Source of the DNA: Eubacteriales bacterium
GTDB lineage: Bacteria; Bacillota; Clostridia; Oscillospirales; QAKW01
Assembly: GCA_045539135.1 (NCBI GenBank)
Contig: JAZQET010000061.1
Location: 1,032-65,031 of the forward strand
Length of the DNA stretch: 64,000 bases
Direction: 5' to 3'
Shown: one piece after another, positions 8,820-57,666 of the stretch
Numbering within the stretch: the stretch's first letter is position 1
How the letters are laid out: every line of letters starts with the position of its first letter
The notes under the pieces: generated by a model
What the model was told of the DNA's origin: nothing
Seen by the model: the letters and a program-made list of their open reading frames with translations, nothing else
Database searches by the model: none
Made by a program: the position numbers and the translations under genes

Positions 8820-9004
8820 GTGGGATCAAGCAAGAAGGCGCTTGCTCAGGTGTGACAAAAATGTCTGTAGAAAATTTCTTGCTGTTTTTGTGCAAGTTGG
8901 AGAAAAGAAACTTTCTTTCCGAAAACTGTTTACAAGAAGAATATTTCTTGTTATAGTGAAATTATGAAAGGTTGTTCGGTCTTTGGATCAGAAAGGAGAA
9001 AACG

Positions 9005-9697: not shown

Positions 9698-9874
9698 AGT
9701 GAGTTCATTCGAACCGAAACTGCCTTTTGGCAGGCCTCTTCGGCGATTTTCGGCGCGCTTTCAGGCGCCTTGCGCCATGCTCCTAAAGAACACAAAGCAA
9801 TGAATTGCCATGAGGCGTGAATTGGCTCACGCCATGATTTGCACCGTCGGTGCATGAATTGCCTGCAGCATTAT

Positions 9875-9915
9875 AAAAAGGACAGAGAATGTTTGACATT
9901 CTCTGTCCTTTTTTT
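9875..9915. terminator. Bidirectional terminator (lipoprotein gene / jag)
   Basis: AAAAAGGACAGAGAATG-TTTGA-CATTCTCTGTCCTTTTTTT, with an A-tract and a T-tract flanking a 12-bp stem. Confidence 0.8.
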
Positions 9916-9933
9916 GCAATCATATTGCGTTTT

Positions 9934-10737: not shown

Positions 10738-10755
10738 AATTTATTTTATTTCCTC

Positions 10756-11718
10756 TTATTTCTTTTTCTTGGAAGCGGCAATGGCGGCTGCTTTTTTGGC
10801 GGCGGCTGCACTGCGCTTTTCTTTCTTGATTTCTTTTTCTCGCTCCATCTTTGCTTCCACTTCTGCCAAGACCTTTTTGGGGTCATACATCTTATGGAGG
10901 ATCAGGGTCTGGGCGATCCCCAAAATGTTACCGATGATCCAGTAGAAGCCCAAAGCACAGTTCAGGCTGTAGCAGAAGAACACGGTGATGATGGGCATCA
11001 TATAGGTCATCATCTTATTGGAGCCCTGCATGGAAGGATCCTGCTGCACCGCATTCAGCTTTTGGGAGATCCAAGAGAGCAGAATACCGGTGATACCCGC
11101 AAAAATGGGGATCAACAGCATCCAAGAGAAGAAATCCTGATTGGGAGTACCGTTCAGGTCGATAATACCCAGAAGATTATTGCCGGGAATGTTAAATTTA
11201 TCGCCTGCCGCCTGCATGATCTGCAATTCATAATTGCTGATGGTATTCACCGAAGCACCGGAAGCGATCTTGTCCATCACCTTTTGAAGGGCATCAGGTA
11301 GATTTTCCAAGGTCAGCGCGATATCATAGATCCGCTGAGCGGTGTTTTTGGTGAACAGTTCTCCGTAATAAACAAAGGTAATGGGATGGCGCACAATGGA
11401 ATACACAATATAGATCAAGGGCAACTGGATCAGCAAGGGCAGGCAGCTGCTCATGGGGTTATAGCCTTCCCGCTGATAGAGGTTTTGCAGTTCCATATTG
11501 TATTTTTCCCGATTATTGCCGTATTTTTTGGCAAGGGCTTCCTGATAGGGGCGCAGACGCACCATATTCAGGGTATTTTTTTGCTGTTTCATCGCCAGGG
11601 GGAAGACCACCAGTCTTGCCACCACTGCATACAGCATCAATGCCAGCGCATAATTGTTGAACAGCTTCATAAAAAACTGCATAATGGCGGCAAAGGGGAC
11701 AATGAGATAATCCCACAT
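10756..11718 (-). CDS. yidC: Membrane protein insertase YidC/SpoIIIJ
   Basis: 320 aa with a 60-kDa-IMP core (NPMSSCLPLLIQLPL) and a basic C-terminal tail. Confidence 0.93.
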   Translation of the reverse strand: MWDYLIVPFAAIMQFFMKLFNNYALALMLYAVVARLVVFPLAMKQQKNTLNMVRLRPYQEALAKKYGNNREKYNMELQNLYQREGYNPMSSCLPLLIQLPLIYIVYSIVRHPITFVYYGELFTKNTAQRIYDIALTLENLPDALQKVMDKIASGASVNTISNYELQIMQAAGDKFNIPGNNLLGIIDLNGTPNQDFFSWMLLIPIFAGITGILLSWISQKLNAVQQDPSMQGSNKMMTYMMPIITVFFCYSLNCALGFYWIIGNILGIAQTLILHKMYDPKKVLAEVEAKMEREKEIKKEKRSAAAAKKAAAIAASKKKK

Positions 11719-11720
11719 AG

Positions 11721-11978
11721 TTATTTTCTCCTTTTATATAATTGCTCCCGTTCCGGAACGGGGTCATACCCACCCTTCGACCAAGGATGACAGCGCAAAA
11801 TGCGCCATAAAGCCAATCCTCCGCCGATCAGGATCCCGAACCGCTCAATGGCGGTGCAGGCATAGGCGGAGCAGGTGGGGTAAAATTTGCATCGGGCAGG
11901 AAAGAGAGGGGAAATCCATTTTTGGTAAGCACGTATGGGCAAGATCCATACCGCCCGTAACCTTTTGCGGATGCTCAC
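11721..11978 (-). CDS. yidD: Membrane protein insertion efficiency factor YidD
   Basis: Contains [32 protein letters not shown], the YidD signature. I place the start at GTG 11978, overlapping the rnpA stop (GTGA). The longer track ORF (to 12080) overlaps rnpA and is unlikely. Confidence 0.8.
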
Positions 11979-12292
11979 GCCGAAAAGGTCTCCCGAAAAA
12001 TTCGTTCTATCTCGGTGCTTTTGCAATGAAGACACCGACTGCGGGCAACAACCACAATATCCATCCCCGCGGGCAGGCACTCAAAGGCTGCCGCCGCCCC
12101 CGCACGGATAATGCGGCGGATGCGGTTGCGGTCGGGGGAATTTCCGATCTTTTTACTGACGGTGATCCCAAGGCGGGTGACCCCCCTTTGGTTTTTGCGC
12201 CAATAAAGGACCATCTTATCGGTCACGCGGGACTTTCCCCTGTGGTAGGCTCTCCTGAAATTTACATTTTCCTTAACACTTTCGATTTTCAT
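11975..12292 (-). CDS. rnpA: Ribonuclease P protein component
   Basis: 105 aa, basic, with the RNR-like motif [17 protein letters not shown]. Conserved rpmH-rnpA-yidD-yidC order. Confidence 0.92.
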
Positions 12293-12357
12293 TCATCTAC
12301 CCGAAGCTCGCTCTTCAAACAAAAAGGGTCACAATATTTGCTTGTGACCCCTCGTTA

Positions 12358-12492
12358 TTAGTGCGATAATCTTTTTCTACCTTTTGCTCTTCTTCTTGCC
12401 AAAACTTTGCGTCCGTTGGCGGTCAGCATTCTTTTTCTGAAGCCGTGAACTTTGCTTCTCTGTCTCTTCTTAGGCTGATAAGTCCGAACCAT
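12358..12492 (-). CDS. rpmH: 50S ribosomal protein L34
   Basis: Too short for the ORF track. Reverse translation gives [44 protein letters not shown] (44 aa), the L34 consensus. Confidence 0.95.
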
Positions 12493-12572
12493 TTTCCGAT
12501 CCTCCTTTTTGATGAATTCCCTTATTGCAAACGGGAATATTTCTCGTAATTATAATTTTTGAGCAAAATACA

Positions 12573-12600
12573 TTATAGTAAAGTAAACATAATTTGTCAA
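12573..12600 (-). promoter_or_regulatory. Near-consensus sigma-A promoter of rpmH
   Basis: The minus strand reads TTGACA (12600-12595), a 16-nt spacer, then TATAAT (12578-12573), about 80 nt upstream of the rpmH ATG. Confidence 0.7.
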
Positions 12601-12611
12601 CAAAAACTTTA

Positions 12612-13994
12612 TTAAAATTCGAGGCTTTTGCGAATAAAGTCGTTCAGCTCCTCGATTTTGACCCGCTTTTGGTCCATGGTATCGCGGAAACGGATGGTTA
12701 CGCAACCGTCCTCTTCACTCTCAAAGTCATAGCAGATGGAGAAGGGAGTACCGATCTCATCCTGACGGCGATAGCGCTTACCGATGGAGCCTGCATCGTC
12801 GAATTCCACATTAAATTCCTTGCAAAGGGGAGCATAAACCTTTTCCATCGCCGCCTGAGACAGCTTTTTGGACAAGGGCAGGATGGCGGCCTTCACAGGT
12901 GCCAAAGCGGGGTGCAGTCTCAACACGGTGCGCACATCGTTCTTCTCTGCATCCAGCACTTCCTCATCATAAGCCTCGCAAAGGAATGCCAGCAACACAC
13001 GGTCGGCACCCAAGGAGGGCTCCACCACATAAGGAATATAGTGCTCATTGGTCTCGGGGTCAAAATACTCCAGACTCTTACCGCTGGCCTCCTGATGGCG
13101 GCCAAGGTCATAATTGGTACGGTCGGCAATGCCCCAAAGCTCGCCCCAACCGAAGGGGAACATAAATTCAATATCGGTGGTTGCTTTGGAATAGAAAGAA
13201 AGCTCTTCCTTCTCATGGTCGCGCATCCGGATGTTTTCTTCCTTCATCCCCAGATCCAAAAGGAACTTCTTGCAGTAATCTTTCCAATAATAGAACCAAT
13301 CCAGATCGGTATCGGGCTTGCAGAAGAATTCACACTCCATCTGCTCGAACTCTCTGGTACGGAACACAAAGTTACCGGGGGTAATTTCATTACGGAAGGA
13401 TTTACCGATCTGGCAAACACCGAAGGGAAGCTTTTTACGGGTGGTTCTTTGAATGTTGGCATAGTTCACGAAGATGCCCTGCGCCGTTTCGGGGCGGAGG
13501 TACACTTCGTTTTTGGCATCCTCGGTCACCCCGATGAAGGTCTTGAACATCAGGTTGAACTTGCGGATGTCGGTAAAGTTCTTACTGCCGCAATCGGGGC
13601 AGGCGATGTCATTCTCTTTGATGTATTCCTGCATCTGCTCGAAGGTCATCCCCTCGGCCTTGCCGCCCACATCCTCGATCAGCTTATCGGCACGGTGACG
13701 GGCGTGGCAATCCTTACAATCCATCAAAGGATCGGAAAAGCCGCCCACATGGCCGCTGGTTACCCAGGTTTCGGGGTTCATAATGATGGCGGAATCCAAC
13801 CCTACATTATAGGGAGACTCCTGCACAAATTTCTTCCACCAGGCTTTTTTTACATTGTTTTTAAACTCCACACCCAAAGGACCGTAATCCCAAGAGTTGG
13901 CAAGTCCGCCGTAGATCTCACTGCCCGCATAAACAAAGCCGCGGTTTTTGCAAAGATTTACGATCTGTTCCATGGTTTTTTCCGTATTTTTCAT
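12612..13994 (-). CDS. glyQS: Glycine--tRNA ligase (alpha2 homodimeric type)
   Basis: 460 aa. Starts [41 protein letters not shown] and contains [21 protein letters not shown], class II aaRS motifs of GlyQS. Confidence 0.96.
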
Positions 13995-14201
13995 AATTGA
14001 ACCCTCCGTTTTTTTCTAAAAATTTATTATATATCCATTCTCCTTTCTTGTCAACCTTAAAAATTATTCATAAATTTAAACTATATTTAAAGTATTACTT
14101 ATAATATATAAAATAATTATTGCATTTATCAACAGGTTATGGTATGATATCTGTGTATAATTTTACTTTTAAGGCAAAAAGAGAAAAGAAAGGGGAAAAT
14201 C
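13995..14201. promoter_or_regulatory. AT-rich dnaA upstream region: candidate oriC half with the dnaA promoter
   Basis: Very AT-rich 207 bp. TTGCAT (14120-14125), 17 nt, then TATGAT (14143-14148). One-mismatch DnaA boxes are TTATCAACA (14126-14134, inside the spacer) and TGTGTATAA (14152-14160). Confidence 0.55.
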
Positions 14202-15566
14202 ATGCAATCATTTAAGGATGTTTGGGATCGGGCGCTGGTCATTTTGCAAAATGAACTGAACAGTATCTCTTATGAGAGCTGGATCAAGCTGCTGATTCCG
14301 ATGAAGATGGAAAACGATGTTGCTTATTTCTGCGTCTCAACTTTATTTCAAAAAAGCATCATCGATAAAAAATATAAGCAGAATATCGAAAAAGCAATCT
14401 CCGACACCATGGGTTTTGATGTTGCCATTAAGGTGATGACCGAGGATGAGGTTCCTCCCCGTTTTCAGGAGATCACCCAAAAGAAAAACGAAGAGTTTAA
14501 CAGCACCATCTCCCTGATCGAAGAAGATCATGTGCGGGCATTCAATGCCAAAAGCAACCTGACCTTTGAAAACTTTGTGGTGGGCAAGGAAAATGAATTT
14601 GCCCATGCGGCAGCCCTTGCCATTGCCAATAATCCGGCCGATGCCTATAACCCGTTTTTCTTATACGGGCACAGCGGTTTGGGAAAAACCCACCTGATCA
14701 ACGCCATCGCCAATAAAATTAAAGAAAATAACCCCGATTGCGTGATCATGTATACCAAGGGCGATGAATTTACCAGCGAGCTGATCGATGCCATTCAGCA
14801 TCAAACCCAGCGGCAGTTTAAGAATAAGTACCGTCAGGCAGACATTCTTTTGATGGATGACGTGCAGTTCTTAAGCGGGAAGCCTTCGGTGCAAGAAGAG
14901 ATGTTCCATACCTTCGATGCCCTGCACGAAAATAATAAACAGATCATCTTGACCTCCGACCGTCCTCCCAAAGAGATGGCTACCTTGGAGGAACGGTTGG
15001 TCTCCCGCTTTTCCAGCGGCCTGATCGCCGATGTGCAGCCCCCCGAATATGAGACCCGCGTTGCCATCATCAAGCGGAAAGCCGCCCTTTATAACCTGAA
15101 GATCCCCGATGAAGTGGTGGAGCTGATCGCCAAAAACATCAAAACCAATGTGCGGGAGCTGGAGGGTACCATCAAAAAGCTCAAAGCTTATCATTCCCTT
15201 TGGGGACAAGCTCCTTCCTTGGCTCTTGCCAAAGATGCTATGGAAGCGGTGATCAAAGAAAACACCAGCACCACGGTTACCCCCGCCTCCATCATCGACC
15301 ATGTGGCAAGATACTTCAATATCTCGGTGGATCAACTTCTTTCCAATAAAAAGACCAATGAGATCGTGTTCCCCCGCCAGATGGCTATGTATATCATTCG
15401 GGAGACCACCAACCTCTCCCTGCCGGAGATCGGAAAGGAGATCGGCGGTAAAAATCATACCACCGTTCTTTATTCCATCCGCAAGCTGGAGGAGACCATG
15501 CGCAGTGATCCCAAGATCAAAAAGATCGCCGCAGAACTTATTGAAAACATCAAAAAATCTTATTAA
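14202..15566 (+). CDS. dnaA: Chromosomal replication initiator protein DnaA
   Basis: 454 aa with AAA+ Walker A GHSGLGKTHL, LLMDDVQF, and the domain IV helix-turn-helix near the C-terminus. Confidence 0.98.
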   Translation: MQSFKDVWDRALVILQNELNSISYESWIKLLIPMKMENDVAYFCVSTLFQKSIIDKKYKQNIEKAISDTMGFDVAIKVMTEDEVPPRFQEITQKKNEEFNSTISLIEEDHVRAFNAKSNLTFENFVVGKENEFAHAAALAIANNPADAYNPFFLYGHSGLGKTHLINAIANKIKENNPDCVIMYTKGDEFTSELIDAIQHQTQRQFKNKYRQADILLMDDVQFLSGKPSVQEEMFHTFDALHENNKQIILTSDRPPKEMATLEERLVSRFSSGLIADVQPPEYETRVAIIKRKAALYNLKIPDEVVELIAKNIKTNVRELEGTIKKLKAYHSLWGQAPSLALAKDAMEAVIKENTSTTVTPASIIDHVARYFNISVDQLLSNKKTNEIVFPRQMAMYIIRETTNLSLPEIGKEIGGKNHTTVLYSIRKLEETMRSDPKIKKIAAELIENIKKSY

Positions 15567-15784
15567 CAGATTTCTTGTTTATAAACAGCAAGTTTTCCAC
15601 AGAATCCACAGGTTTACCTGAGGTTCACATAATACTGTCTATGGTTTGTGTATTGTTTTTCGGAATTTCACATTCTTTGAAACAGGCGCAAAATAAGACC
15701 CTGCCTTGCTTTTCGGGGATCTGAACAGATTTCACAGACCAACAACAACTACTACAATAAAGATAGAACAGAAAGGAATTGCTT
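15567..15784. promoter_or_regulatory. dnaA-dnaN intergenic region: candidate oriC half (DnaA-box-like sites plus a trinucleotide tract)
   Basis: Adjacent TTTTCCACA (15593-15601) and GAATCCACA (15602-15610). ATTTCACA-type sites lie near 15665 and at 15728-15736. These are followed by GACC and AACAACAACTACTACAATAAAG (15741-15762). Confidence 0.5.
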
Positions 15785-16906
15785 ATGAAATTTTCCTGCG
15801 ACAGAACGATTTTAAATGAAATCAGTAACATTGTCCAAAAAGCAGCCAGTCCCAAATCCACCATTCCTGCTCTGGAAGGCATTTTGATCGAGGTTTGGGA
15901 AGGCGGAAAGATCGAGTTTACCGCTTATGACCTTTCTATCTCCATTTCTTATACCCTGCAAGAAGAGAATACCGAAAAGGGAAGAGTGATCCTTTCTTCC
16001 CGCCTGTTCGGCGAAATCATCCGTAAACTGCCTGCCGGTGAAGTAACGGTGGAGACCGATAATAAAACCTATCTCACCACCATTGATTCGGGCAATGCCC
16101 ACTTTACCATCACCGGTATGGACCCCGAAAACTTCCCCGAACTTCCCGATGTGCTGGGGCAAGACGGTGTGGTGCTTACCTATTCCGATTTCAAAACGAT
16201 GGTGCGCCAGACCATCTTTGCGGTCTCGGTCACCGATCTGAAGCCCATCCTGACCGGTGTTCTTTTTGAACTGAATCGGGAGGAGGGTACCGTCAGCGCC
16301 GTGGCGGTGGATAATTTCCGCCTTGCCATTCGGAAGGTTCCCTTTGTGCAGGTCAACGGCAACTTTAATAAAGTAGTCATTCCCTCCAGAGCCCTCAATG
16401 AGCTTTTGAAGATCTTGCCCGACAGTGAGACCGAGACCATTCAGATCTGCAACAGTAAAAACTTTGTTTCCTTCCGTTTCGGAGATGTGCAGATGGTCTC
16501 CCGCCTGCTGGAAGGTGAATTTTTGGATTATAAGGCGGCCTTGCCCAAGGCTTATAAATTCCGCGTGAAGGTCAATGTACGGGAATTTTCCAATGTGATC
16601 GAGCGGGCATCTTTGATGGCCAATGCTACCATTATCAGTCCCATTCGCTGTAACTTTGATTTTGACCGTATCGACATTACCACCGCTTCCAATCTGGGTA
16701 GCTTCGACGATTCCATCAATGTGGATCCCTTCTCCGATAAGATGGTGATCGGCTTCAATTATAAATATATGTTGGCGGCTCTGAACGCCTGCGACGATGA
16801 AGAGGTCTTTATCGAGCTGCAGTCCAATCTGGCACCCATCATTATTAAGCCTATGGAAAAAGAGGATTATCTCTTCTTGGTACTGCCTTTGCGGATGAAG
16901 GAATAA
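15785..16906 (+). CDS. dnaN: DNA polymerase III beta sliding clamp
   Basis: Starts MKFSCDRTILNEISNIVQKAAS, has three-domain length, and follows dnaA. ATG 15785 is preceded by AAAGGAA. Confidence 0.96.
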   Translation: MKFSCDRTILNEISNIVQKAASPKSTIPALEGILIEVWEGGKIEFTAYDLSISISYTLQEENTEKGRVILSSRLFGEIIRKLPAGEVTVETDNKTYLTTIDSGNAHFTITGMDPENFPELPDVLGQDGVVLTYSDFKTMVRQTIFAVSVTDLKPILTGVLFELNREEGTVSAVAVDNFRLAIRKVPFVQVNGNFNKVVIPSRALNELLKILPDSETETIQICNSKNFVSFRFGDVQMVSRLLEGEFLDYKAALPKAYKFRVKVNVREFSNVIERASLMANATIISPIRCNFDFDRIDITTASNLGSFDDSINVDPFSDKMVIGFNYKYMLAALNACDDEEVFIELQSNLAPIIIKPMEKEDYLFLVLPLRMKE

Positions 16907-16911
16907 AAAGA

Positions 16912-17121
16912 ATGAATAAGCTTGTTATTTACGATGAATATATCCGCCTTTGCGATGCCTTGAAATTTGCGGGCATCGCCGAAACGGGCGGTATTGCAAA
17001 GCTGATGATCTTGGACGGAGAAGTGACGGTCAACGGAGAGATTTGCCTGATGAAGGGCAAAAAGCTTTATCCCGAGGATGTGTTTGAGATCGACGGGCAG
17101 GCATTTAAGATCACCCGATGA
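16912..17121 (+). CDS. yaaA: S4-domain RNA-binding protein YaaA
   Basis: 69 aa. IRLCDALKFAGIAETGGIAKLMILDGEVTVNGE is an S4 fold. Conserved dnaN-yaaA-recF position. Confidence 0.85.
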   Translation: MNKLVIYDEYIRLCDALKFAGIAETGGIAKLMILDGEVTVNGEICLMKGKKLYPEDVFEIDGQAFKITR

Positions 17122-18260
17122 AGATCACCTGCCTGAAGCTTGAAAATTTCAGAAACTTTGAAGAAGAGACCTTCTCCTTTGTCGACGGCATTAATATCCT
17201 TGCGGGCAATAACGCGCAAGGAAAGACCAACTGCATCGAAGCCATCTATTTTTGCTCCTGCCTGAAAAGCTATCGCGTGTTAAAAGAGGAGCAGTTGATC
17301 CGCTTCGGGCAGTCGGAGGCTTCCATCACCTTGGATTTTCAGGTGGACGGCAGAGAAGAGCAGATGAAGGTGCTTTTTGCCAACGGTAAACCCAAGGAAT
17401 ACCGCTATAACGGTCTTGCCGTTTCTCGTCTAAGGGATCTTTTGGGGTGCTTTCATTCGGTGATCTTTACTCCCGATCACCTGAATCTGATCAAGGAAGG
17501 ACCCCATAAGCGAAGAACCTTTTTGGATATGGCTCTTTGCTCGCTGGATCTGAAATATACCGACCGCCTGCTGAACTATCAGAAGATCTTAAAAAACCGC
17601 AACGCATTGTTGCGGCAGTGCAAGGAAGATCCCCAAGCGGCGGAAATGCTGTTTGTGTGGGATGAAAAGCTGGCGGAGGAAGGGGCATATATTGCCAAAG
17701 CCCGCCAGCAGTATATTGCCGCCCTTTCGGAGATCGCCAAAGGCTTTTACGGGGAGATCGCCGCAAAGGAAGAAAAACTGAAGCTGATCTACTTAAATCA
17801 GTTTACCAAGGATGCGGTCAGCGAGGAAGAATACCGCCGCCTGATCCTTTCCCGCCTGCAAAAGATGCGGGAAACGGATATTGCCATGGGGCAAACGGTG
17901 AGCGGAGTGCATAAAGACGATATTTTGATTTTGCTTTCGGGCAAAAGTATGAAATATTTTGCTTCCCAAGGGCAGATCCGCTCGGCGGTGTTGGCGATGA
18001 AGCTGGCGGAGGCAGAATGCATCTTCCAAAAAACAGGGACCCAGCCGGTATTGCTTTTAGACGATATTCTTTCGGAACTGGATGCCAAGCGGCAAAAATT
18101 CATCTTCCGGCGGATGGAAGGCAGGCAGACAGTGCTCACCACCTGTGAGCTGGGAAAGATCCGTAAAAAAGGCGATAAAGTGTTCTTTATCAAAGAAGGA
18201 AAGGCGGTAAGGATCCGTGTACCTGCACTTAGGGCAAGAGGTGCTGATCAAGAAGGATGA
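17118..18260 (+). CDS. recF: DNA replication and repair protein RecF
   Basis: 380 aa with Walker A GNNAQGKTNCIEAI, the SMC-like signature SQGQIRSAVLAMKLAE and Walker B LLLDDILSELD. Confidence 0.95.
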   Translation: MKITCLKLENFRNFEEETFSFVDGINILAGNNAQGKTNCIEAIYFCSCLKSYRVLKEEQLIRFGQSEASITLDFQVDGREEQMKVLFANGKPKEYRYNGLAVSRLRDLLGCFHSVIFTPDHLNLIKEGPHKRRTFLDMALCSLDLKYTDRLLNYQKILKNRNALLRQCKEDPQAAEMLFVWDEKLAEEGAYIAKARQQYIAALSEIAKGFYGEIAAKEEKLKLIYLNQFTKDAVSEEEYRRLILSRLQKMRETDIAMGQTVSGVHKDDILILLSGKSMKYFASQGQIRSAVLAMKLAEAECIFQKTGTQPVLLLDDILSELDAKRQKFIFRRMEGRQTVLTTCELGKIRKKGDKVFFIKEGKAVRIRVPALRARGADQEG

Positions 18261-18486
18261 CATCATCGGCATCTTTGATATGGATAAAGCCACCGTCTCC
18301 AAGCGCACCCGAATGTTTCTGGCGCAAAAGGAGAAGGAGCAAAAAATCATTAATGTTGCAACCGATTTACCGAAATCTTTTATCCTTTGCGGAAAAGGAG
18401 AGGAAATTGTTGTATATATCTCGCAGATCTCGGCGCAAACGCTGCTGAAGCGCTGCAATTTCATTCAAAAACTATCTTATATTTAA
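18217..18486 (+). CDS. remB: DUF370 protein (RemB/YaaB-like)
   Basis: 89 aa with GQEVLIKKDDIIGIFDMDKATVSKRTRMFL. Typical small gene between recF and gyrB. Overlaps the recF 3' end by 44 nt. Confidence 0.8.
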   Translation: MYLHLGQEVLIKKDDIIGIFDMDKATVSKRTRMFLAQKEKEQKIINVATDLPKSFILCGKGEEIVVYISQISAQTLLKRCNFIQKLSYI

Positions 18487-18516
18487 GGATAAGTAGGATT
18501 TAGTAGGAGGAAAAAA

Positions 18517-20445
18517 ATGGCTCAGGAAAAAGTAATCAACCAATACGATGAATCTTCCATTCAGGTATTGGAAGGTCTGGAAGCGGTAAGAAAACGCCCC
18601 GGTATGTATATCGGCTCCACCTCTATTCGCGGACTCCACCATCTGGTTTATGAGATCGTGGATAACTCCATTGATGAGGCCTTGGCAGGTTATTGCGATA
18701 CCATCAAAGTTTCCATTTTGCCGAATAATATCATCGAAGTGTCGGATAACGGCCGCGGTATCCCCGTGGGTATCCATCCCAAAATGGGGATCCCCACCGT
18801 GGAGGTGGTGTTTACCATCCTGCACGCGGGCGGTAAATTCGGCGGCGGCGGATATAAGGTCTCCGGCGGTCTCCACGGTGTGGGTGCGTCGGTGGTAAAC
18901 GCGTTGTCCGAATGGCTGGAAGTGGAAGTCAAAGACGGTCGGCATATCTATACCCAACGCTACCAGAGAGGAAAGAGCGATTCCTCTTTGCAGATGGTGG
19001 GCGATACCACCGAAAAGGGCACCAAGGTGCGCTTTTTGGCAGACAGTGAGATCTTCGAGACGCTGGAATATGAATATGATGTACTCTTAAAGAGACTGCG
19101 GGAGCAGGCGTTCCTGAATGCAGGTCTTAAGATCATCTTTGAGGATCTGCGGGAAGAGAGCCCCAAGAGCAAAACCATGTGCTATGAGGGCGGTATTCGG
19201 GAGTTTGTGACCTACCTGAATAAAAATAAAGAGCCTCTCCACGAAGATGTGATCTATGTGAGCGGTATGAAGAACACCTCTATGGCGGAGGTGGCCATGC
19301 AGTATACCACCCGCTATGATGAGACCTTGATCTCCTTTGCCAACGATATCAATACCACCGAAGGCGGTACCCACGAATCGGGCTTTAAGAGCGCTTTGAC
19401 CCGCGTGATCAATAACTATGCGCGGAAATATAACTTCTTAAAGGAAAAGGATGCCAATCTCTCCAGCGAGGATGTGCGGGAAGGTCTTACCGTCATCATC
19501 AGTGTGAAGGTGGAGGAAGCCCAGTTTGAAGGGCAGACCAAAACCAAGCTGGGCAATTCCGAGGTGCAGGGTCTGGTCAGCTCCATCATCAGCGAAAAGC
19601 TGATGGAGTTCTTTGAGGAAAATCCCAAGATCGCAAAAACCATTATCGGGAAGGCGGTCTCCGCCTCCCAAGCAAGAGAGGCGGCAAGAAAGGCAAGAGA
19701 GCACGCCCGCAAGAGCGCCCTTTCTACCTCTATGAGCCTCCCCGGCAAGCTGGCAGACTGCCAGAGCAAGGATAATCAATATACCGAAATTTATATCGTC
19801 GAGGGTGATTCCGCAGGCGGTTCCGCCAAGGAAGGAAGAGACCGCCGTTTTCAGGCGATCCTCTCCCTTTGGGGCAAGACCCTGAATGTGGAAAAATCCC
19901 GTTTGGACCGTGTTTATAATAACGATAAGCTGCAGCCCATCATCGCATCCTTGGGCACCAATATCGGTGCGGATTTTGATATCACCAAGCTGCGCTACGG
20001 GAAAGTCATTATTATGGCGGATGCCGACGTGGACGGTGCCCATATCCGCACCCTCTTGCTCACCTTCTTCTTCCGCTTTATGCGTCCCTTGGTGGAGGGC
20101 GGCTATGTGTATACCGCCGTTCCCCCGCTTTATAAGTTGGTGAAGGGCAAAGAGACCCGCTATGCTTATTCCGATGCGGAGCGGGATCAGATCTCCGCCG
20201 AGATGCGCGGGGAAGACGGAAAGGGTAAAGTGGAGATCAGCCGCAATAAGGGTCTTGGTGAAATGGACCCCTCCGAGCTTTGGGCAACCACCATGGACCC
20301 CGAGACCCGTACCTTAAAGCAGTTTACGTTGGGCGATGCCATCGCCGCCGATGAGACCTTCTCCATCCTGATGGGCGAGAAGGTAGAACCCAGAAAGGCG
20401 TTTATTGAAGATAACGCTCAGTATGTAATGAATCTTGATGTATAA
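18517..20445 (+). CDS. gyrB: DNA gyrase subunit B
   Basis: 642 aa with a GHKL ATPase ([17 protein letters not shown]), a TOPRIM domain ([15 protein letters not shown]) and PLYK. Confidence 0.98.
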
Positions 20446-20459
20446 GGAGGTGCTTCAAA

Positions 20460-22949
20460 ATGGCTAAAAATGAAATTTTCGATACCACAAGCTATGAAAA
20501 TCAGGTCATCGTTCCCGTTGATCTGGAAAAAGAAATGAAGAACTCCTATCTGGACTATGCCATGTCCGTGATCGTGGGTCGTGCTCTGCCCGATGTCCGC
20601 GACGGTCTGAAGCCTGTCCACCGTCGGATTCTTTATGCCATGTATGAGGATAACCTGACCAGCGATAAGCCCTTCCGTAAGGCCGCCACCTGCGTGGGTG
20701 ATGTGCTGGGTCGGTACCATCCCCATGGCGACGCATCCGTTTATGATGCCTTGGTGCGCTTGGCGCAGAGCTTCTCTTTGCGCTATCCCTTGGTAGAGGG
20801 TCACGGGAACTTCGGTTCCATCGACGGGGACCCCGCCGCAGCATACAGATATACCGAGGCAAGAATGTCCAAGATCTCCAATGAGATGCTTCGGGACATT
20901 GAAAAGGATACCATTGATTGGGATCCCAACTTTGATGAGACCCGCAAGGAACCCCATGTGCTTCCTGCCCGCTATCCCAACCTGCTGGTGAACGGTTCTT
21001 CCGGTATCGCCGTTGGTATGGCCACCGATATTCCGCCCCATAACCTGCGGGAAGTGGTAGACGGTGCCATTGCGGTGCTGGAGAACCCCGATATCGAGAT
21101 CGATGAGCTTTGCGAGATCATCAAGGGACCCGATTTCCCCACCGGCGCCATTATTATGGGCAGAACCGGCATCCGTAACGCGTACCGTACCGGTCGCGGC
21201 AAGATCTATGTCCGCGCCCGCGCCGAGATTGAGGAGTGGAAAGACGATCGCTATAAGATCGTGGTGACCGAAATTCCCTATATGGTGCGGAAAGCCGCCC
21301 TGATCGAAAAGATCGCCGATGAGGTCAAGACCGATCGGATCTCCGGCATCTCCGATATCCGCGATGAATCGGATAAGGACGGTCTGCGGTTTGTGGTGGA
21401 ACTGAAAAAGGAAGCCAATCCGCAGGTGATCCTCAATCAGCTTTATAAATACACCGAAATGCAGGCCACCTGCTCGGTGATTATGCTGGCGTTGGTAGAC
21501 GGGGTACCCAAGGTGCTCAATTTGAAGCAGATGCTGGAAGAGTATCTTGCCCACCAAAAGAGCGTCATCCGCCGCCGCACCGCCTTTGAGATCAAAAAGG
21601 CAGAGGCCAGAGCCCATATTTTGGAGGGCTTGGTGAAGGCCATTGACCATATCGACGAAGTCATCAATATCATCCGCGCATCCAAGCATATCACCGACGC
21701 CAAGGAGCAGTTGATGAACCGCTTTGATCTGGATGAGATTCAGGCGCAGGCCATTGTGGAGATGCGCCTTGGTCAGCTGTCCGGTCTGGAGCGTGAAAAG
21801 GTGGAAAACGAGTATAAAGAGATCACCGCCAAGATCGCCGACCTGAAGGATATTCTTGCCAATGAGAGCCGTGTCAACGAGATCATTAAAGAAGATATGT
21901 CCGAGATCGCGCGGAAATACGGCGATGCCCGCAGAACCGAGATCGGTCACGGCGAGGTGGGTCTGGAGGATGAGGATCTGATCCCTGTGGAGGATTGCAT
22001 CTTCACCCTTACCGAGGCAGGCTATATCAAGCGCCAGCTCACCGAAGTGTATAAGGCACAGCACCGCGGCGGTCGCGGCATCACCGGTATGAAGACCAAG
22101 GAGACCGATGTGGTGAAGAGCCTGTTTGCCGCATCGACCCACGATACCATTCTGTTCTTTACCACCTTGGGTCGTGTCTATCGGATGAAGGGCTATGAAG
22201 TTCCCGAAAGCTCACGCGTGGCAAAGGGCACCAATGTGGTGAACCTGCTGCCCCTGCAGAGCGGAGAAAAAGTCAATGCCATGATTCGGGTGGAGGATTT
22301 CGATCAGGAGGGCTACCTTTTGATGGCCACCCGCAACGGTACCGTGAAAAAGACCGCCCTTCGGGATTATTCCAATATCCGCAAGACCGGCGTGATTGCC
22401 ATCCTGCTGGATGAGGGGGATGACCTGATCAGCGTTTGCCTTACCGACGGCGAGGACCATGTGATGATGGCCACCCATGAGGGTAAAGCCATCCGCTTTG
22501 ATGAAGCGGAGGTCCGCACCATGGGCAGAGTTACCCGCGGTGTGCGGGGTATTCGCTTGGCGGATACCGATTATGTGGTGGGTATGTGCTTGGAGCGGGA
22601 AGGCTCCGACCTGCTGACCATTACCGAAAAGGGCTACGGGAAGCGTACCGCACCGGAAGAGTATCGCCTGCAATCCCGCGGCGGTAAGGGTATTTCCAAT
22701 TATAATATTACCGAAAAAACCGGCAAGGTGGCGGCGATCCGTATGGCCGCTGAGGGCGAGGATGTTCTGCTGGTCACCAGCGGCGGCGTGATCATGCGCA
22801 CCAAGGTGGAGGAGATCTCCCGCCTGTCCCGCAGTACCCAAGGGGTGCGCGTGGTGCGGCTGGAGGATGGCATCACCGTCATTGATATGGCAGGCGCCGC
22901 CCGCGAGGAAGAAGTTGCCGTGGATGAAGAGGAGACTGCCGAAGAATGA
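20460..22949 (+). CDS. gyrA: DNA gyrase subunit A
   Basis: 829 aa. The [14 protein letters not shown] region has the active-site Tyr context [12 protein letters not shown]-terminal beta-pinwheel and an acidic tail are present. Confidence 0.98.
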
Positions 22950-24070
22950 AAAACCAACGGTTAAAGCTGTTTGCCCTTCTTTTGGCGGCGGTGCTGTTGA
23001 TCAGCGGCTGTGCCGCCCCGTCGGCAAAGCCGGAAACGCCGCCTACTCCTGTTACCGTGTATGGGGAGACCCCCAACAAATTGGAGGGGAAGGTCTTGCT
23101 GAACGGCGCTCCGCTCTCGGCTCTTTATGAGGCGGAAGGGGTGCTGTATCTGGAGGAGAGCGAGTTTCTGCTGGCAGTAGACGGAGAGACCAAGCCCTCC
23201 TTGGGAAGCGATAATCATACCATCACCGTTACGGTGGGGGAAACTGCGGTCACCTATGAGACCGCCCCCGCCGCAGGCGGTGCCCACGCGGTCTTCGACG
23301 GAAAGCGCTGGTACCTCCCTTGCGAAGATCTTTTGGGGAAGCTGGGCTACCATCTTTTTGAGGATGAAGCCGAAAACTGCCGCTATTTTACCGCCTATCC
23401 CACTGCGGAAACGGTGTATAAAGGGGTGGAGGTTCCTATTTTGATGTACCACGCCGTCAGTAATGAAATGTGGGGCGTGGAGGAACTGTTTGTTTCCCCC
23501 GAGCGGATGGAAGAGCAGCTCCAATACCTCACCGAAAACGGCTATACCCCCATCTGGTTTGAGGATCTGGCGCAGATCGAGACCATCCAAAAGCCGGTGA
23601 TCCTCACCTTCGACGATGGCTATGCCGATAATTGCACCAAGCTGCTGCCCCTGCTGAAGAAATATAATGTGAAGGCTACCGTCTTTCTCATCACCAAAAG
23701 CGTCGGCGCGGAGCATTACCTCACCGAGGCGCAGATGAAAAAGATGCTGGATAGCGGTCTGGTCTCGTTCCAGAGCCATACCGCCACCCATCCCGACCTC
23801 AGCGCCTGCGGCGAAGAAAAACTGCGGGAGGAGATGCTGGAATCCAAGCGGTATATTGCCAAAATGACCGGCAAGGAGCCCTTTGTGCTGTGCTATCCCA
23901 TGGGCAAATGGTCGGAAAAATCCTTGGAGATGACCGCAGAATATTATGAATACGGCATCTTTATGACCGGTAAGACCTTTGTGAGCGGTGAGACCGATCC
24001 TATGCGGGTCTATCGGAAATATGTGGCACGAAGCACCACCCTCAATCAATTCAAAAATATGATCGGATAA
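22946..24070 (+). CDS. Lipoprotein with a polysaccharide deacetylase (NodB) domain
   Basis: Lipobox LLISGC. NodB motifs are [11 protein letters not shown] and SHTATHPDL. The start overlaps the gyrA stop (ATGA). Confidence 0.85.
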
Positions 24071-25479: not shown

Positions 25480-25692
25480 TTACTTTTGAATTTTCGGTTG
25501 GTTGCTGACTCCTAATAAATAGTCAACGGAAACATTGTAGTGCTTGGAAAGCATGATCAATACTTTGGTAGGGATGTCCCGCTTGCCCAGCTCGTAAGCG
25601 CTGTATGCCTGCTGAGTGCAGTTCAGATATTCGCAGATGTGATATTGGTTAAAGCCATTGCCTTCTCGTAATTCTTTCAATCTTTTATACAT
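25480..25692 (-). CDS. XRE/Cro-C1 family helix-turn-helix transcriptional regulator (70 aa)
   Basis: MYKRLKELREGNGFNQYHICEYLNCTQQAYSAYELGKRDIPTKVLIMLSKHYNVSVDYLLG is a canonical HTH_3. ATG 25692 has GAAGGGA about 10 nt upstream (the track ORF starts at GTG 25701). Confidence 0.88.
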   Translation of the reverse strand: MYKRLKELREGNGFNQYHICEYLNCTQQAYSAYELGKRDIPTKVLIMLSKHYNVSVDYLLGVSNQPKIQK

Positions 25693-25718
25693 GAAAAACA
25701 CATCCCTTCTACCAAAAA

Positions 25719-25799: not shown

Positions 25800-27008
25800 T
25801 TCACAACATTTTGTTGTGAAGGCGATGAGGATCGTTGTTTTTTGGGGTAGTTTTTGGTCTGCACAACATTTTGTTGTGAAGCTAAAATTACAGGTTTCTA
25901 CAATTTTTCCTTGTATAGCGGAAGCCATTGTTCCTCACAACATTTTGTTGTGAGGAACAATTAAATTGTGCGCCGCACACATCCGGCATACTCTTCAATG
26001 ACACAACAAAATGTTGTGTAGACCAAAATCATTCTGCACTGAACACCCCCACACACTTGCTTACACAACAAAATGTTGTGAAAACAGGAGACGAGGCGGG
26101 TTGTTATTCATTGGATCACAAGACCGCACAACAAAATGTTGTGATGAATAGAAGAGTTTCTTAAAAAAAGAGTAAAAACGGTTTCACAACAAAATGTTGT
26201 GCAAATCGAAAGAGTTCAGCGAAACGGAGGGAAACGGGTTTCACAACAAAATGTTGTGAAAGTGGAGAACGAAGAACTCTACTTCCTATTTTTAAGTTTG
26301 CACAACAAAATGTTGTGTAGCCAAACCGAGTGCTTCTCATAGAGTTTTCATACAAAAAAGAAAAGAAACATTTTCACAACAAAATGTTGTGAAAATGGTA
26401 GGCACAGCAGATTATATTGCATTGGATTATATAGCTCCACAACAAAATGTTGTGAGGATTAAATCGGCGCAGTCTGTAGGGAACACAGTTATTATTCTTC
26501 ACAACAAAATGTTGTGAAGAAAGAGGAAAAGCGTTCCGGTGACACTCTATTATTGTATTTCACAACAAATTGTTGTGAAGCCTTGAGGGTCGTTGTTTTA
26601 TGATGGGCATATGATTTGTCACAACATTTTGTTGTGAAACTTATTGGATATAAGGTTATTTTACGCACTTTGTAAAGTGGTTTTTGCTTCCACAACAAAT
26701 TGTTGTGAAGATCAAAGAAAACTTATTTTAGGAAAGGGTGTATGTGTCGCACAACATTTTGTTGTGGGGCTTATTGAGTGCGAGGTTTTTAGAGTGGTTT
26801 TAGGTTACACAACATTTTGTTGTGAAGATTATGAAACTTGTTCTTTTTTTGCATGGTGTATGTGTTGCACAACATTTTGTTGTGAAGTCATGATGCTCGT
26901 GCTCTTGTAACAAGGCTGATGGTTTTTCACAACATTTTGTTGTGATGGCTATGGAGAATGCCGATTATTCTTTATGGGTTTTGGGGTTTCACAACATTTT
27001 GTTGTGCT
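25800..27008. repeat. Array B: 20 copies of the palindrome CACAACA-WWW-TGTTGTG at 57-74 bp spacing with mostly unique spacers
   Basis: 21-mers start at 25800, 25860, 25934, 26000, 26062, 26125, 26183, 26240, 26299, 26373, 26436, 26498, 26559, 26618, 26689, 26748, 26806, 26866, 26926 and 26988. The 17-bp core is essentially invariant. The A/T centre changes polarity in blocks. Only short spurious ORFs cross it. Confidence 0.92.

Positions 27009-34165: not shown

Positions 34166-34191
<26 letters not shown>
33538..34191 (-). CDS. recX: Recombination regulator RecX
   Basis: About 213 aa of helical repeats, immediately downstream of and overlapping recA. The start is either 34191 or 34179. Confidence 0.85.
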
Positions 34192-35272
<1,081 letters not shown>

Positions 35273-35431
35273 ATCAAACATCCTCCTCTATATAGAGTTC
35301 TTTATATATTTATACAGATTAATTATATAATAGAGATAAAAATAAATCAAGGGGAAGAGAAAACTTTTAGCGCTTCGCGCCCACATTTTGTGCGTCTTGT
35401 GCGTTGCCCCTTACCCTCATTCTATGACCGA

Positions 35432-35712
35432 CCGCACAAATGAATTGTGCGGGAGAAGATAACGTAGCAGAGCACACAAATAGATTGTTCGGCAACAAAT
35501 TCCACAGAGGGAAGCGCACAAATAGATTGTGCGGGAGAAGATTCTGTAGAGGGTGCGCACAAATGAATTGTGCGGGAGACAGAGAAGTGTGGGAGGGCGC
35601 ACAAATAGATTGTGCGGCAGAGGGTATCACGGAAAGGATGCACAGCAGAACGCACAAATGAATTGTGCGGTAGAGGACTTCATAGAGGGGAACGCACAAA
35701 TGAATTGTGCGG
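35432..35712. repeat. Array C: 7 direct copies of the palindrome CCGCACAA-ATRRA-TTGTGCGG in a ~42 bp tandem unit
   Basis: 21-mers start at 35432, 35472, 35514, 35555, 35597, 35650 and 35692 (spacings 40, 42, 41, 42, 53, 42), all in the same orientation. Purine-rich spacers are related to each other (GAGAAGAT..GTAGAGGG). Confidence 0.9.
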
Positions 35713-35778
35713 ATGGGGAGAAAAAGGGTTGTTTTTTGCAGAGAGGTGCGGTAAAATTAGGATAGAGAAAAGGGGGAG

Positions 35779-36087
35779 ATGAAGATGGAGCGTGTTTTCA
35801 GCAAGCGGTTGCGGCAATTAAGGATTGAGAAGGGCGTTTCGGCGAAGCATATGAGCCGAGAGCTTGGGATGACGGAAAACTACATTTACAACATCGAGGC
35901 GGGTTATGCTTATCCCTCTATGACACAGTTCTTTTCCATCTGCACATATCTTGACATTGCGCCGGCGAAGTTTTTAGTATTTGAGCCGGAGACGTCCGCC
36001 AAAGAGGATGAGTTGTTGGAAGCCGTTGACGGTTTTGACAACGAAAGGATACAACAAATAATTGAATATGCCAAAGGCATCCGATAA
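35779..36087 (+). CDS. XRE family helix-turn-helix transcriptional regulator (102 aa)
   Basis: FSKRLRQLRIEKGVSAKHMSRELGMTENYIYNIEAGYAYPSMTQFFSICTYLDIAPAKFL is an HTH_3. Preceded by GGGGGAG, with a possible TTGTTT-17-TAAAAT promoter. Confidence 0.85.
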   Translation: MKMERVFSKRLRQLRIEKGVSAKHMSRELGMTENYIYNIEAGYAYPSMTQFFSICTYLDIAPAKFLVFEPETSAKEDELLEAVDGFDNERIQQIIEYAKGIR

Positions 36088-36112
36088 AAGATCCGCAATG
36101 CGGATCTTTTTT
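36086..36112 (+). terminator. Rho-independent terminator
   Basis: AAAAGATCCGC-AAT-GCGGATCTTTTTT. Confidence 0.8.
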
Positions 36113-37687: not shown

Positions 37688-37716
37688 TTGACAAATCTTT
37701 GAGCCCGTGATAGAAT
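37688..37716 (+). promoter_or_regulatory. Sigma-A promoter driving the cobalamin riboswitch leader
   Basis: TTGACA (37688-37693), 17 nt, then TAGAAT (37711-37716). Confidence 0.7.
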
Positions 37717-37730
37717 ACGGAGCAGAAACA

Positions 37731-38160
37731 CGCTGTCAAACAAGGAAGAGGGGTGTGAATCCCCCGCGATCCCGTCGCCGTGATGGACGATGGAGCAAGG
37801 CGTTTGACCACTGCACCGAGAACGGGTGCGGGAAGGTGCCTTAAGGTAACAAGAGCAATCCGAACCTGCCTCAAAGCGGGATATTTCGGCGCTTTTTACC
37901 CAATTTATTCTTGCAAGGCGTCAAGCCTTGCTGCACCTAAATTGAGCAAAAATCCCTCGAAATCTCCTCGCTTTGAGGTCGAAGATTTTGAAAAGTGCGC
38001 ATTTTTGATCAATCAAGGCGCAAAACGGAGCCAATACTGCCGTATTGGCGAGTATTTTAACGAAGAGTGAACGAAAATCCGCCTTTTCAAAACAGATTCA
38101 GATTGCTCTTGTTACCTTACGCTCCGCTTGAGTCCTCAGCCGAAAGACTTCTTGACAGCG
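37731..38160 (+). promoter_or_regulatory. Cobalamin (B12) riboswitch aptamer, interrupted by a 274-bp MITE
   Basis: The P1 strands are CGCTGTCAA (37731-37739) and TTGACAGCG (38152-38160). Core elements match the btuB-type consensus as I recall it: AGGAAGAGGGGTGTGAATCCCC, GACCACTGCACC..GGGTGCGGGAAGGTGCC, and a B12-box-like AGCCGAAAGACTT (38138-38150). A hairpin plus T-tract follows (about 38160-38215). Downstream genes are a DUF4430 protein and an ECF S component. Confidence 0.75.
37844..38117 (+). mobile_element. MITE copy A (274 bp, ~25-bp imperfect terminal inverted repeats, TA target-site duplication)
   Basis: Ends are AGGTAACAAGAGCAATCCGAAC and the imperfectly inverted GATTCAGATTGCTCTTGTTACCT, flanked by TA (37842-43) and TA (38118-19). 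About 80% identical to the reverse complement of 47990-48263. Confidence 0.85.
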
Positions 38161-39182: not shown

Positions 39183-39203
39183 ATTCCTTGGGGGATTTAT
39201 TTC

Positions 39204-39285
39204 ATTTCACATTCTGCCGCAGGCAGAATATTTCACAAGGCGCAAAGCGCCTTATTTCACATTTTGCGTCAGCAAAATATTTCAC
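39204..39285. repeat. Four ATTTCAC heptamers alternating with three unrelated short hairpins (24-26 bp period)
   Basis: ATTTCAC occurs at 39204, 39230, 39254 and 39279. The hairpins are ATTCTGCC-GCA-GGCAGAAT, AAGGCGC-AAA-GCGCCTT and ATTTTGC-GTCA-GCAAAAT. Confidence 0.8.
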
Positions 39286-39324
39286 TAAAAAAGAGGGATC
39301 AGCCGAAAGGCTGATCCCTCTTTT
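39286..39324. terminator. Bidirectional terminator (ECF S component / MFS gene)
   Basis: AAAAAAGAGGGATCAGCC-GAAA-GGCTGATCCCTCTTTT. The MFS stop codon lies inside the stem. Confidence 0.8.
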
Positions 39325-47237: not shown

Positions 47238-47262
47238 GTTTCACAACATTTTGTTGTGAAAC
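47238..47262. repeat. Solo copy of the array A/B palindrome
   Basis: GTTTCACAACATTTTGTTGTGAAAC is a 25-bp palindrome (11-bp arms) in the intergenic space just before a bidirectional terminator. Confidence 0.9.
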
Positions 47263-49171: not shown

Positions 49172-49272
49172 CCTCCAGCGGGATGCGAGATCTGCACGGC
49201 GGGAACCCCTTCGTTCCAAAGACAACTCCCCGTTCTTCGGACACGTGACCCGCAGGTCTCTACTCCAGAGTA
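49172..49272 (-). promoter_or_regulatory. THF (tetrahydrofolate) riboswitch
   Basis: The minus-strand RNA reads GGAGUAGAGACCUGCGGGUCACGUGUCCGAAGAACGGGGAGUUGUCUUUGGAACGAAGGGGUUCCCGCCGUGCAGAUCUCGCAUCCCGCUGGAGG. It aligns block by block with the E. siraeum THF aptamer as I recall it (GGAGAGUAG..GCG..GGGAUGUCGUC..ACGAAG..CGCGGUG..GCAUCCGCU). The SD GGAGG lies at the 3' end. Confidence 0.75.
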
Positions 49273-57590: not shown

Positions 57591-57617
57591 GAATTATACC
57601 GCTTATAGCGGTATAAT
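57591..57617. promoter_or_regulatory. 27-bp perfect palindrome, probable operator in a divergent promoter region
   Basis: AATTATACCGCT-TAT-AGCGGTATAATT. Each arm contains a TATAAT-like hexamer. Related half-sites TAAGCGGTAA and ACTACCGATTA lie upstream (57551-57583). Confidence 0.6.
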
Positions 57618-57666
57618 TATGTGAAGGTGCAAAATTTGATTAGTATTTATTGGAGAAGGTGGAACA

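Follow-up and report, generated by a model that had tools for sequence, protein, structure and literature searches.

The 64,000-nucleotide stretch of DNA analysed here, referred to throughout as the window, comes from a Eubacteriales bacterium (GenBank assembly GCA_045539135.1, contig JAZQET010000061.1, positions 1,032 to 65,031 of the forward strand), and all positions are those of the window. Between recA and a small, divergently oriented gene for a Cro/C1-type helix-turn-helix (HTH) regulator of the XRE family, it carries a tandem array of seven palindromes at 35432-35712 (Table 1). This array is real and non-random, and comparison with about 25 homologous loci leads us to regard it as probably made up of tandemly amplified operators of the adjacent downstream XRE regulator. 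From this arrangement we infer binding by the XRE protein, the sign of its autoregulation and a role of the array in titration or cooperativity, and the details of activation and titration are held with lower confidence than the statement that the array is an operator array.

The seven 21-mers reported in an earlier, sequence-only reading of this DNA were all reproduced at the same coordinates, with copy-to-copy spacings of 40, 42, 41, 42, 53 and 42 bp, that is, a period of 40-42 bp plus a single 53-bp unit, for which Tandem Repeats Finder gives a period of 42. When the pattern CGCACAANNNNNTTGTGCG was searched with up to 2 mismatches in the whole window, 7 matches fell within the array and 1 unrelated match lay at 25954; dinucleotide-preserving shuffles, which served as the null, gave an expectation of 0.26 matches, and 0 of 100 shuffles reached 8. 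With regard to dispersed extragenic palindromes of the REP/BIME type, the CGCACAA-N5-TTGTGCG palindrome is, within the window, confined to the array, and an exact-pattern scan of public metagenome contigs, which is uninformative on this organism, returned 29 isolated single matches on unrelated environmental contigs and zero arrays. The arms are exact in six of the seven palindromes. An alignment of the seven units shows no variation at 16 of the 21 positions of the palindrome, whereas every spacer position varies, and pairwise identity among the units is 0.91 for the palindromes versus 0.57 for the spacers. As had been read from the sequence, the spacers are related to one another (57% identity) and purine-rich (76% purine, with G at 0.40 and C at 0.12). 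The two centre variants, ATGAA and ATAGA, also held up, but the strict alternation claimed for them did not, the order along the array being ATGAA, ATAGA, ATAGA, ATGAA, ATAGA, ATGAA, ATGAA.

Table 1. Positions of the palindrome array, its associated genes and signals, and other features of the window; promoters and terminator are predictions.
Feature	Position	Strand	Remarks
Seven-unit tandem array	35432..35712	.	Unit of a 19-21 bp palindrome (CGCACAA-ATGAA/ATAGA-TTGTGCG) and a 19-32 bp G/A-rich spacer
Palindrome 1	35432..35452	.	CCGCACAAATGAATTGTGCGG; centre ATGAA; most distant copy from the XRE promoter
Palindrome 2	35472..35492	.	GCACACAAATAGATTGTTCGG; centre ATAGA; sole degenerate copy, two arm mismatches
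Palindrome 3	35514..35534	.	Centre ATAGA
Palindrome 4	35555..35575	.	Centre ATGAA
Palindrome 5	35597..35617	.	Centre ATAGA; followed by the sole long spacer, 32 nt
Palindrome 6	35650..35670	.	Centre ATGAA
Palindrome 7	35692..35712	.	Centre ATGAA; promoter-proximal; centre at 35702, about -62 from the predicted transcription start
Possible relic copies (uncertain)	35378..35403	.	Distal array edge; CACATTTTGTGCG and a lone TTGTGCG arm; inverted-repeat pairs I16 and I17
Predicted sigma-70-type XRE promoter	35729..35757	+	TTGTTT (35729-35734), 17 nt, TAAAAT (35752-35757); from sequence reading and a scripted scan
XRE gene, 102 aa, Cro/C1-type HTH	35779..36087	+	Pfam HTH_3, E = 5.2e-9, 36.4 bits against a cut-off of 23
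Intrinsic-terminator-like hairpin and T-run	36086..36110	+	Ends the XRE transcript
recA	34166-35281	-	Start codon at 35281; confirmed as flanking gene
recA sigma-70-like promoter	35350..35322	-	TTGATT-17-TATAAT, strong match
73-aa XRE gene	25480-25701	-	20 perfect CACAACA-WWW-TGTTGTG copies upstream, 25802-27006
CACAACA-WWW-TGTTGTG array, 7 copies	8437-8820		Between mnmE (-) and a lipoprotein gene (+); no XRE gene alongside
CACAACA-WWW-TGTTGTG, single copy	47242-47258		Between two terminator-like hairpins near 47.2 kb
Third XRE paralogue, 110 aa	57204-57536	-	41% identical to the 102-aa XRE over the HTH; same C-terminal helices
mnmE, jag, yidC, class II tRNA synthetase		-	One side of dnaA
dnaA, with dnaN, recF, gyrB and gyrA	14202-15566 (dnaA)	+	
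Cobalamin riboswitch	37696-37887	+	Rfam, above gathering score
Gut-1 RNA	39199-39287	-	Rfam, above gathering score
Tetrahydrofolate (THF) riboswitch	49174-49269	-	Rfam, above gathering score

Palindrome 7 ends 66 nt ahead of the XRE start codon (ATG at 35779), in agreement with the earlier placing of the last copy just upstream of a 102-aa XRE gene, and 16 nt short of the predicted -35 element. The predicted XRE promoter sits between the array and the ATG, as does a GGGGGAG ribosome-binding site, and no terminator was found between the array and the gene. The terminator-like hairpin that follows the coding region indicates that the XRE gene is monocistronic, and the MATE transporter gene 3' of it has a promoter of its own. 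Because array, promoter, XRE gene and terminator stand in series, they form a self-contained unit. The palindromes, at 21 bp, span about two helical turns, and the last of them stands beside the predicted promoter of the XRE gene itself.

In the AlphaFold model of the XRE protein (predicted local distance difference test, pLDDT, 88.7), the HTH helices occupy residues 2-65 and are followed by two C-terminal helices (74-82 and 88-101). Its predicted recognition helix, Y35 I36 Y37 N38 I39 E40, is invariant among the homologues. The closest solved folds are the autoregulatory C proteins C.BclI (E = 5.8e-4, template-modelling score 0.81 on the target) and C.AhdI, followed by ClgR and SinR; DdrO proteins of the XRE family also match in fold, though less well. 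By profile, the phi106 repressor (9sf2, E = 9e-8) ranks first in the PDB, and C proteins are second-best. NCBIfam and PHROGs offered no named family for this protein, giving generic sub-threshold regulator matches only, one of them to the RstR family.

Comparison with relatives ties the array to the XRE gene. A protein search with the 102-aa XRE sequence yielded about 35 clusters that are 54-68% identical to it, every one of them from uncultured Clostridia, and about 25 homologous loci (L numbers below) were fetched, the titles of the metagenome-assembled genomes (MAGs) indicating goat, roe deer and other gut samples. In every one of these loci, the non-coding DNA ahead of the XRE gene is unusually long and holds palindromes of the type arms-CAA-N5-TTG-arms; we estimate a probability of about 0.01 that a single site of this type occurs by chance within 130 nt. 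The neighbouring genes vary by clade and include Exo_endo_phos, CitXG (a citrate lyase accessory), a rhamnosidase with RraA/UxuA, QueH with cca, Band_7, and MFS with Fe-ADH. The number of copies per locus ranges from 1-2 (L012, L013 and L017), which is an ordinary operator arrangement, up to about 22-25 (L003 and L005). Contigs of short-read assemblies break inside the arrays of L007, L008, L009, L012, L057 and L058, as do the Logan contigs of runs X1-X7 on 35432-35712, and the copy numbers of contigs that end within the repeat are therefore lower bounds.

The CAA/TTG core of the palindrome is invariant across loci, alongside the invariant recognition helix, and the outer arms differ by clade: GCGCA in the window and AATA, GTAC, GTGCC, ACTCC, GGTC, TGTAC, GAGTA, CCGGC or GTACC elsewhere. 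Near-identical proteins have identical arms, and the arms differ among protein clades. By this comparison, site and protein are inherited together and change together across genomes. The position of the copy nearest to the gene is also conserved. Most loci have a promoter of the TTGxxx-16/18-TAtAAT type at the equivalent place between array and gene, the centre of the proximal palindrome lies at -49 to -53 of the predicted start in 12 of the 21 loci covered by a scripted scan, and the core promoter is in most loci not covered by any palindrome copy; the window copy, at -62, lies one helical turn farther away. The pairing of palindromes and XRE gene among unrelated neighbours, the clade-specific arms and the conserved proximal position together speak for the earlier proposal that the palindromes are operator-like sites of the adjacent XRE protein.

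Searches beyond these loci gave no arrays in distant homologues (36-48% identity; Monoglobus records and faecal 'phage' contigs) and, in the viral contigs of IMG/VR, neither a relative of the XRE gene nor the palindrome of the 73-aa XRE gene of Table 1. A phage origin of the module was rejected on these grounds. Among the RNA runs searched, the XRE gene was found in none, and one metatranscriptome, found via recA, holds only conserved pieces of recA.

If the array is indeed an operator array, one XRE dimer would bind each 19-21 bp palindrome on double-stranded DNA, each half-site consisting of 4-5 clade-specific bases followed by CAAWT, and reading of the invariant CAA/TTG core would fall to the recognition helix (YIYNIE), which is likewise invariant. 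The proximal copy, just 5' of the -35 element (near -51 in most relatives and at -62 here), would set the transcription of the XRE gene itself. Because this copy lies off the core promoter, an activating contact of the C-protein-like or class-I-like kind is likelier than simple steric repression, and a stereospecific contact with RNA polymerase leading to positive or biphasic autoregulation might be expected by analogy with class-I activators and with the distal operator of C-protein systems, as judged from predicted promoters. The upstream copies may act as a high-capacity cooperative binding platform or sink, the capacity of which, varying with copy number, would fix the XRE level needed before free protein becomes available.

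Several observations weigh against this reading. The predicted XRE promoter in the window matches the consensus at 8 of 12 positions, which is why it is missing from a stricter scan requiring at least 9 of 12, and the promoter positions at all loci are consensus predictions. The period differs by clade (29, 38-41, 41-43, 44-47 or 50-53 bp), and a period that is not conserved argues against a fixed higher-order nucleoprotein geometry. The proposal of the sequence-only reading that all sites lie on one face of the helix can be upheld for the 40-42 bp units of this array but not as a conserved property, since the periods of the relatives run from 29 to 53 bp, and helical phasing as a feature of the family was rejected. 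On inspection of the table of proteins and arms, no simple residue-to-base code leading from protein to arms was seen. Furthermore, three composite arrays (L002, L014 and L016) combine a distal block bearing the arms of another clade (GTGCC) with a proximal block in which the arms are those of the locus itself (ACTCC or GTAC), so that one protein may not bind every copy. Two modules may also occur in one genome, as in L011 and L016, which lie 6 kb apart on one contig, and in L009 and L014, which belong to one MAG; composite arrays and paired modules together suggest either cross-regulation between paralogues or leftovers of module duplication. Finally, the extreme G-rich, C-poor bias of the spacers is left unexplained by a symmetric-dimer model.

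Among the alternatives, the one that survives best, though we consider it unlikely, is that only the proximal copy, or the last two, works and that the others are a neutral variable-number tandem repeat (VNTR), which would have arisen where a hairpin-prone repeat slipped or recombined unequally. Samples that encode the identical protein differ in copy number (about 22 in L003 versus about 25 in L005, 15 in L059 versus 19 in L060, and 5 in L055 versus 3 in L056), and close strains of the window organism, seen in gut-metagenome contigs, drop or swap units: they skip 83 bp, exchange 62 bp for 21 bp or differ in their spacers. Period and spacer are unconstrained, some homologues get by with 1-2 copies, and the amplification of two unrelated XRE operators in one genome could be a lineage-specific mutational tendency. 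However, the distal palindromes are almost perfect, whereas the spacers have diverged to 54-81% identity or past alignment. Neutral copies should decay at the rate of the spacers, and recombinational homogenisation would also have homogenised the spacers; near-perfect distal palindromes amid drifting spacers therefore indicate selection on binding-competent copies and argue against both neutral junk and simple homogenisation. The possibility raised earlier, that the repeat is a strain-specific VNTR absent from close relatives, thus holds for one half, in that copy number behaves as a VNTR, but not for the other, in that the array is present family-wide.

The spacer bias deserves separate treatment. 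The highest GC skew in the 64 kb (0.54, calculated over 281 bp) starts at 35521, inside the array. The G-rich strand tracks neither the direction of the XRE gene nor that of the palindrome centres, and the sign of the spacer skew equals that of the flanking GC skew in 12 of 14 loci. The bias and its agreement with the flanks were seen in the window array and at L002, L007-L011, L014, L016, L018, L019, L054, L055 and L059. In the window, the G-rich strand also coincides with the leading strand, whichever side of dnaA is considered. This bias could stem from strand-biased mutation in spacers free of constraint, from selection favouring purine-rich words with leading-strand skew, or from a function specific to one strand. 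It is chiefly on its account that a structural role of the array and a role as RNA have to be kept in view.

As a structural DNA element, the XRE-bound array might be a centromere-like or anchoring landmark close to the origin, might insulate against replication or transcription or block either with polarity, or might serve to decoy foreign repressors; we think all of these very unlikely. The architecture is that of sopC of the F plasmid, in which tandem units of about 43 bp each contain an inverted repeat bound by an HTH dimer; all three palindrome arrays of the window (35432-35712, 25802-27006 and 8437-8820) lie about 6-21 kb from dnaA; and the G-rich strand of each matches the leading strand, the spacer skew agreeing in sign with the flanking GC skew in 12 of 14 loci. 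However, no gene of the ParA, ParM or TubZ type stands beside any of the modules, the distance to the origin is known for the modules of the window only, and the skew correlation comes from few independent lineages and short flanks. A conserved place relative to the XRE promoter is, moreover, what would be predicted for a gene switch and not for a landmark.

A function of the array as RNA, in which a string of hairpins with G/A-rich linkers would be a protein sponge or a type III repeat antitoxin and the XRE protein its partner or regulator, has a still slimmer chance. Tandem repeats of 29-53 nt directly ahead of a small gene recall ToxI-ToxN, the G-rich, C-poor spacers are a property of one strand, and each unit of the array is able to form a hairpin of 7-8 bp. 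However, the units do not keep to one orientation with respect to the gene. The centres found across loci are ATGAA, ATAGA, ATAAA, TTCAT, TCTAT, TTCAA, TCCAA, TTTAA, ATGGT and ACCAT, several sites are perfect odd palindromes (for example, ATCCAATT-C-AATTGGAT), and the orientation of the centre flips both among arrays (L007, L008, L010, L018, L054 and L055) and inside arrays (L057 and L059). Mismatches in the arms that are compatible with G:U pairing are not in excess (31 G:T versus 32 A:C), and there is thus no wobble bias. The promoter is predicted downstream of the array with no terminator intervening, a search of Rfam 15 gave nothing at the gathering threshold in the array and otherwise a single spurious match (E = 0.44) to a vertebrate long non-coding RNA model, and the XRE protein is an HTH_3 DNA binder and not an RNase of the ToxN/AbiQ type. 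Because the centres flip, wobble bias is lacking, the promoter lies 3' of the array without a terminator and Rfam gives no match, the view that the palindrome behaves as a symmetric site in double-stranded DNA is favoured.

The sequence-only reading had pointed to the array as the most conspicuous candidate regulatory element near recA, and a link of this kind is not supported by the comparison of loci. It might have taken the form of a DdrO-like response to damage, independent of LexA, with the XRE protein acting at the array as repressor of recA. The two are divergent neighbours, the first palindrome starting 150 nt from the recA start codon (about 160 bp had been given earlier, so that the placement stood and the distance changed); no GAAC-N4-GTTC box with up to 1 mismatch occurs between recA and the array (35282-35431), as had been noted of Cheo/LexA boxes; DdrO proteins are among the fold matches, albeit the weaker ones; and close strains (X6) retain the order recA-array-XRE. 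However, recA stands beside the XRE homologue in none of the approximately 25 related loci, and it has a strong promoter of its own, the -35 element of which is 82 bp from palindrome 1. In a contig (X15) from a strain with a recA about 98% identical, the sequence diverges from 35351, just past the recA promoter, into 516 unrelated bases, which suggests that this strain lacks the array-XRE module here or has other DNA in its place. The XRE protein matches only HTH families and has no S24 peptidase or cleavage domain, and there is no adjacent IrrE-like gene. An SOS-type link to recA was rejected because a LexA box is lacking, the recA promoter is separate and XRE relatives do not adjoin recA. 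Control of recA by the array is hardly credible; recA is simply a neighbour of the module in this lineage, and its adjacency should not be taken as a sign of an SOS-type element.

Among known systems, the one closest to the module in mode of action is an autoregulated Cro/C1 regulator together with its operators. Membership among C-protein, LexA, CRISPR, type III toxin-antitoxin and plasmid-centromere systems fails on the defining features of each. The C proteins (C.AhdI, C.BclI, C.Esp1396I and C.PvuII), which give the best structural matches, resemble the XRE protein in being small HTH dimers of the Cro/C1 type. Their sites are palindromes a short way 5' of the gene that encodes them, and activation comes from the site ahead of the -35 element; the proximal palindrome of the window holds a comparable position. 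However, the dimer sites of C systems number two, OL and OR, the latter covering the -35 element, and these systems stand beside a restriction endonuclease gene, whereas the module has 7 copies (1 to about 25 in relatives), none of them over the core promoter, and its protein has an additional two-helix C-terminal tail. No restriction-modification genes or domains were found beside the window module (recA and MATE) or in the related loci.

This tail recalls SinR of Bacillus subtilis, which likewise combines an HTH_3 domain with two C-terminal helices, the oligomerisation hook of SinR. SinR binds several reiterated short sites, tandem or inverted, at target promoters. Its sites are, however, 7-bp motifs present in few copies at target operons and not a long regular array at its own promoter, and no SinI- or SlrR-like partner gene lies beside the module. 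The phage Cro/CI repressors (434, phi105, RstR of CTXphi and phi106) belong to the same superfamily as the XRE protein, and half-sites of the ACAA..TTGT type recall the 434 operators. Phage operators, however, number 2-6 and overlap promoters, and the XRE modules lie without surrounding phage genes.

Plasmid centromeres (sopC/SopB, parC/ParR and tubC/TubR) share with the array the tandem direct repeats. In sopC, 12 units of 43 bp, each with an inverted repeat, are bound by a dimer encoded nearby, and centromere arrays often double as autoregulatory operators. In contrast, the module is chromosomal and lies between housekeeping genes, the XRE protein is not of the ParB, ParR or TubR type, and no partition NTPase gene (ParA, ParM or TubZ) was found at the window locus or at related loci. 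The type III toxin-antitoxin systems ToxIN, CptIN and TenpIN resemble the array in having tandem repeats of about 36-45 nt immediately ahead of a small protein gene, but that protein is an endoribonuclease and not an HTH protein, and here the promoter is 3' of the repeats, no terminator intervenes and orientation is not fixed. A CRISPR array was rejected, as the repeat is 21 bp long and the spacers, of 19-32 bp, are related to one another at 57% identity; cas genes were found neither among the immediate neighbours (recA, XRE and MATE) nor among the called genes of related loci, the rest of the window not having been scanned for them. Coding potential of the repeat was likewise rejected, because most periods (29, 41, 43, 46 and 53) are not divisible by three.

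The nearest functional analogue of the role proposed for the distal copies is artificial. In synthetic lacO/tetO arrays and engineered decoy arrays, many identical tandem operators soak up repressor and shift response thresholds, and selected arrays in bacteria would, if the proposal is true, be a natural counterpart of these. A full-text literature search gave no account of operator arrays that occur naturally, are conserved and clade-specific, and accompany the gene of their own regulator. Bacterial regulators have, as a rule, one to few operators, and what is unusual here is a many-fold, selected and copy-number-variable reiteration of the operator combined with clade-specific arms. A family with 5-25 near-perfect operators would be a test case for transcription-factor titration and threshold setting, for the co-divergence of operator specificity with paralogous regulators, and for how tandem repeats tune bacterial regulation. 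The orthogonal protein-operator pairs could also serve synthetic biology. On the practical side, such arrays break metagenome assemblies, many contigs stopping inside them, and they are open to confusion with CRISPR-like arrays. A more ambitious generalization, which we regard as speculative and rather unlikely, is that long operator arrays are a natural, selected device in gut Clostridia, either as a threshold-setting or bistable switch or, when coated with protein, as replication-oriented nucleoprotein landmarks around the origin. The switch would combine positive feedback of the small XRE protein from a site at about -51 or -62 with a sink of 5-25 identical operators that varies in copy number; slippage would shift its set-point from strain to strain, and composite arrays would wire paralogous modules to each other.

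A second XRE array lies elsewhere in the window. The parallel that the earlier reading had drawn between the two arrays is borne out, in that the 73-aa XRE gene has 20 perfect palindromes of its own upstream, while its homologues in other Clostridia (L061 and L062) have just two operators, of the form AAC-ATTTT-GTT and located at -80 and -55 relative to the ATG. In this array (25802-27006) the period is about 60 bp, all 20 palindromes are perfect, the centre switches blockwise between TTTT and AAAA, and the spacers are so diverse that Tandem Repeats Finder aligns short stretches only. The 73-aa XRE gene is followed by a gene for a 439-aa membrane protein without a Pfam match. The copies of the same palindrome at 8437-8820 and 47242 may be further targets of the 73-aa XRE protein. 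At 25954-25972, inside this array, there is also a site of the CAA-N5-TTG type that characterizes the 102-aa XRE family, GGAACAATTAAATTGTGCG, which represents either cross-talk or chance.

The third XRE paralogue lacks an array; its promoter region contains one palindrome of the ordinary kind, TATACCGCTATAAGCGGTATA, near 57594-57618. Since the array of the 73-aa XRE gene is amplified and the third paralogue has a single site, operator amplification is recurrent in this lineage but does not extend to every XRE gene there. The window also spans the chromosomal origin region (7004-24070), and the cumulative GC skew has its minimum near 15 kb.

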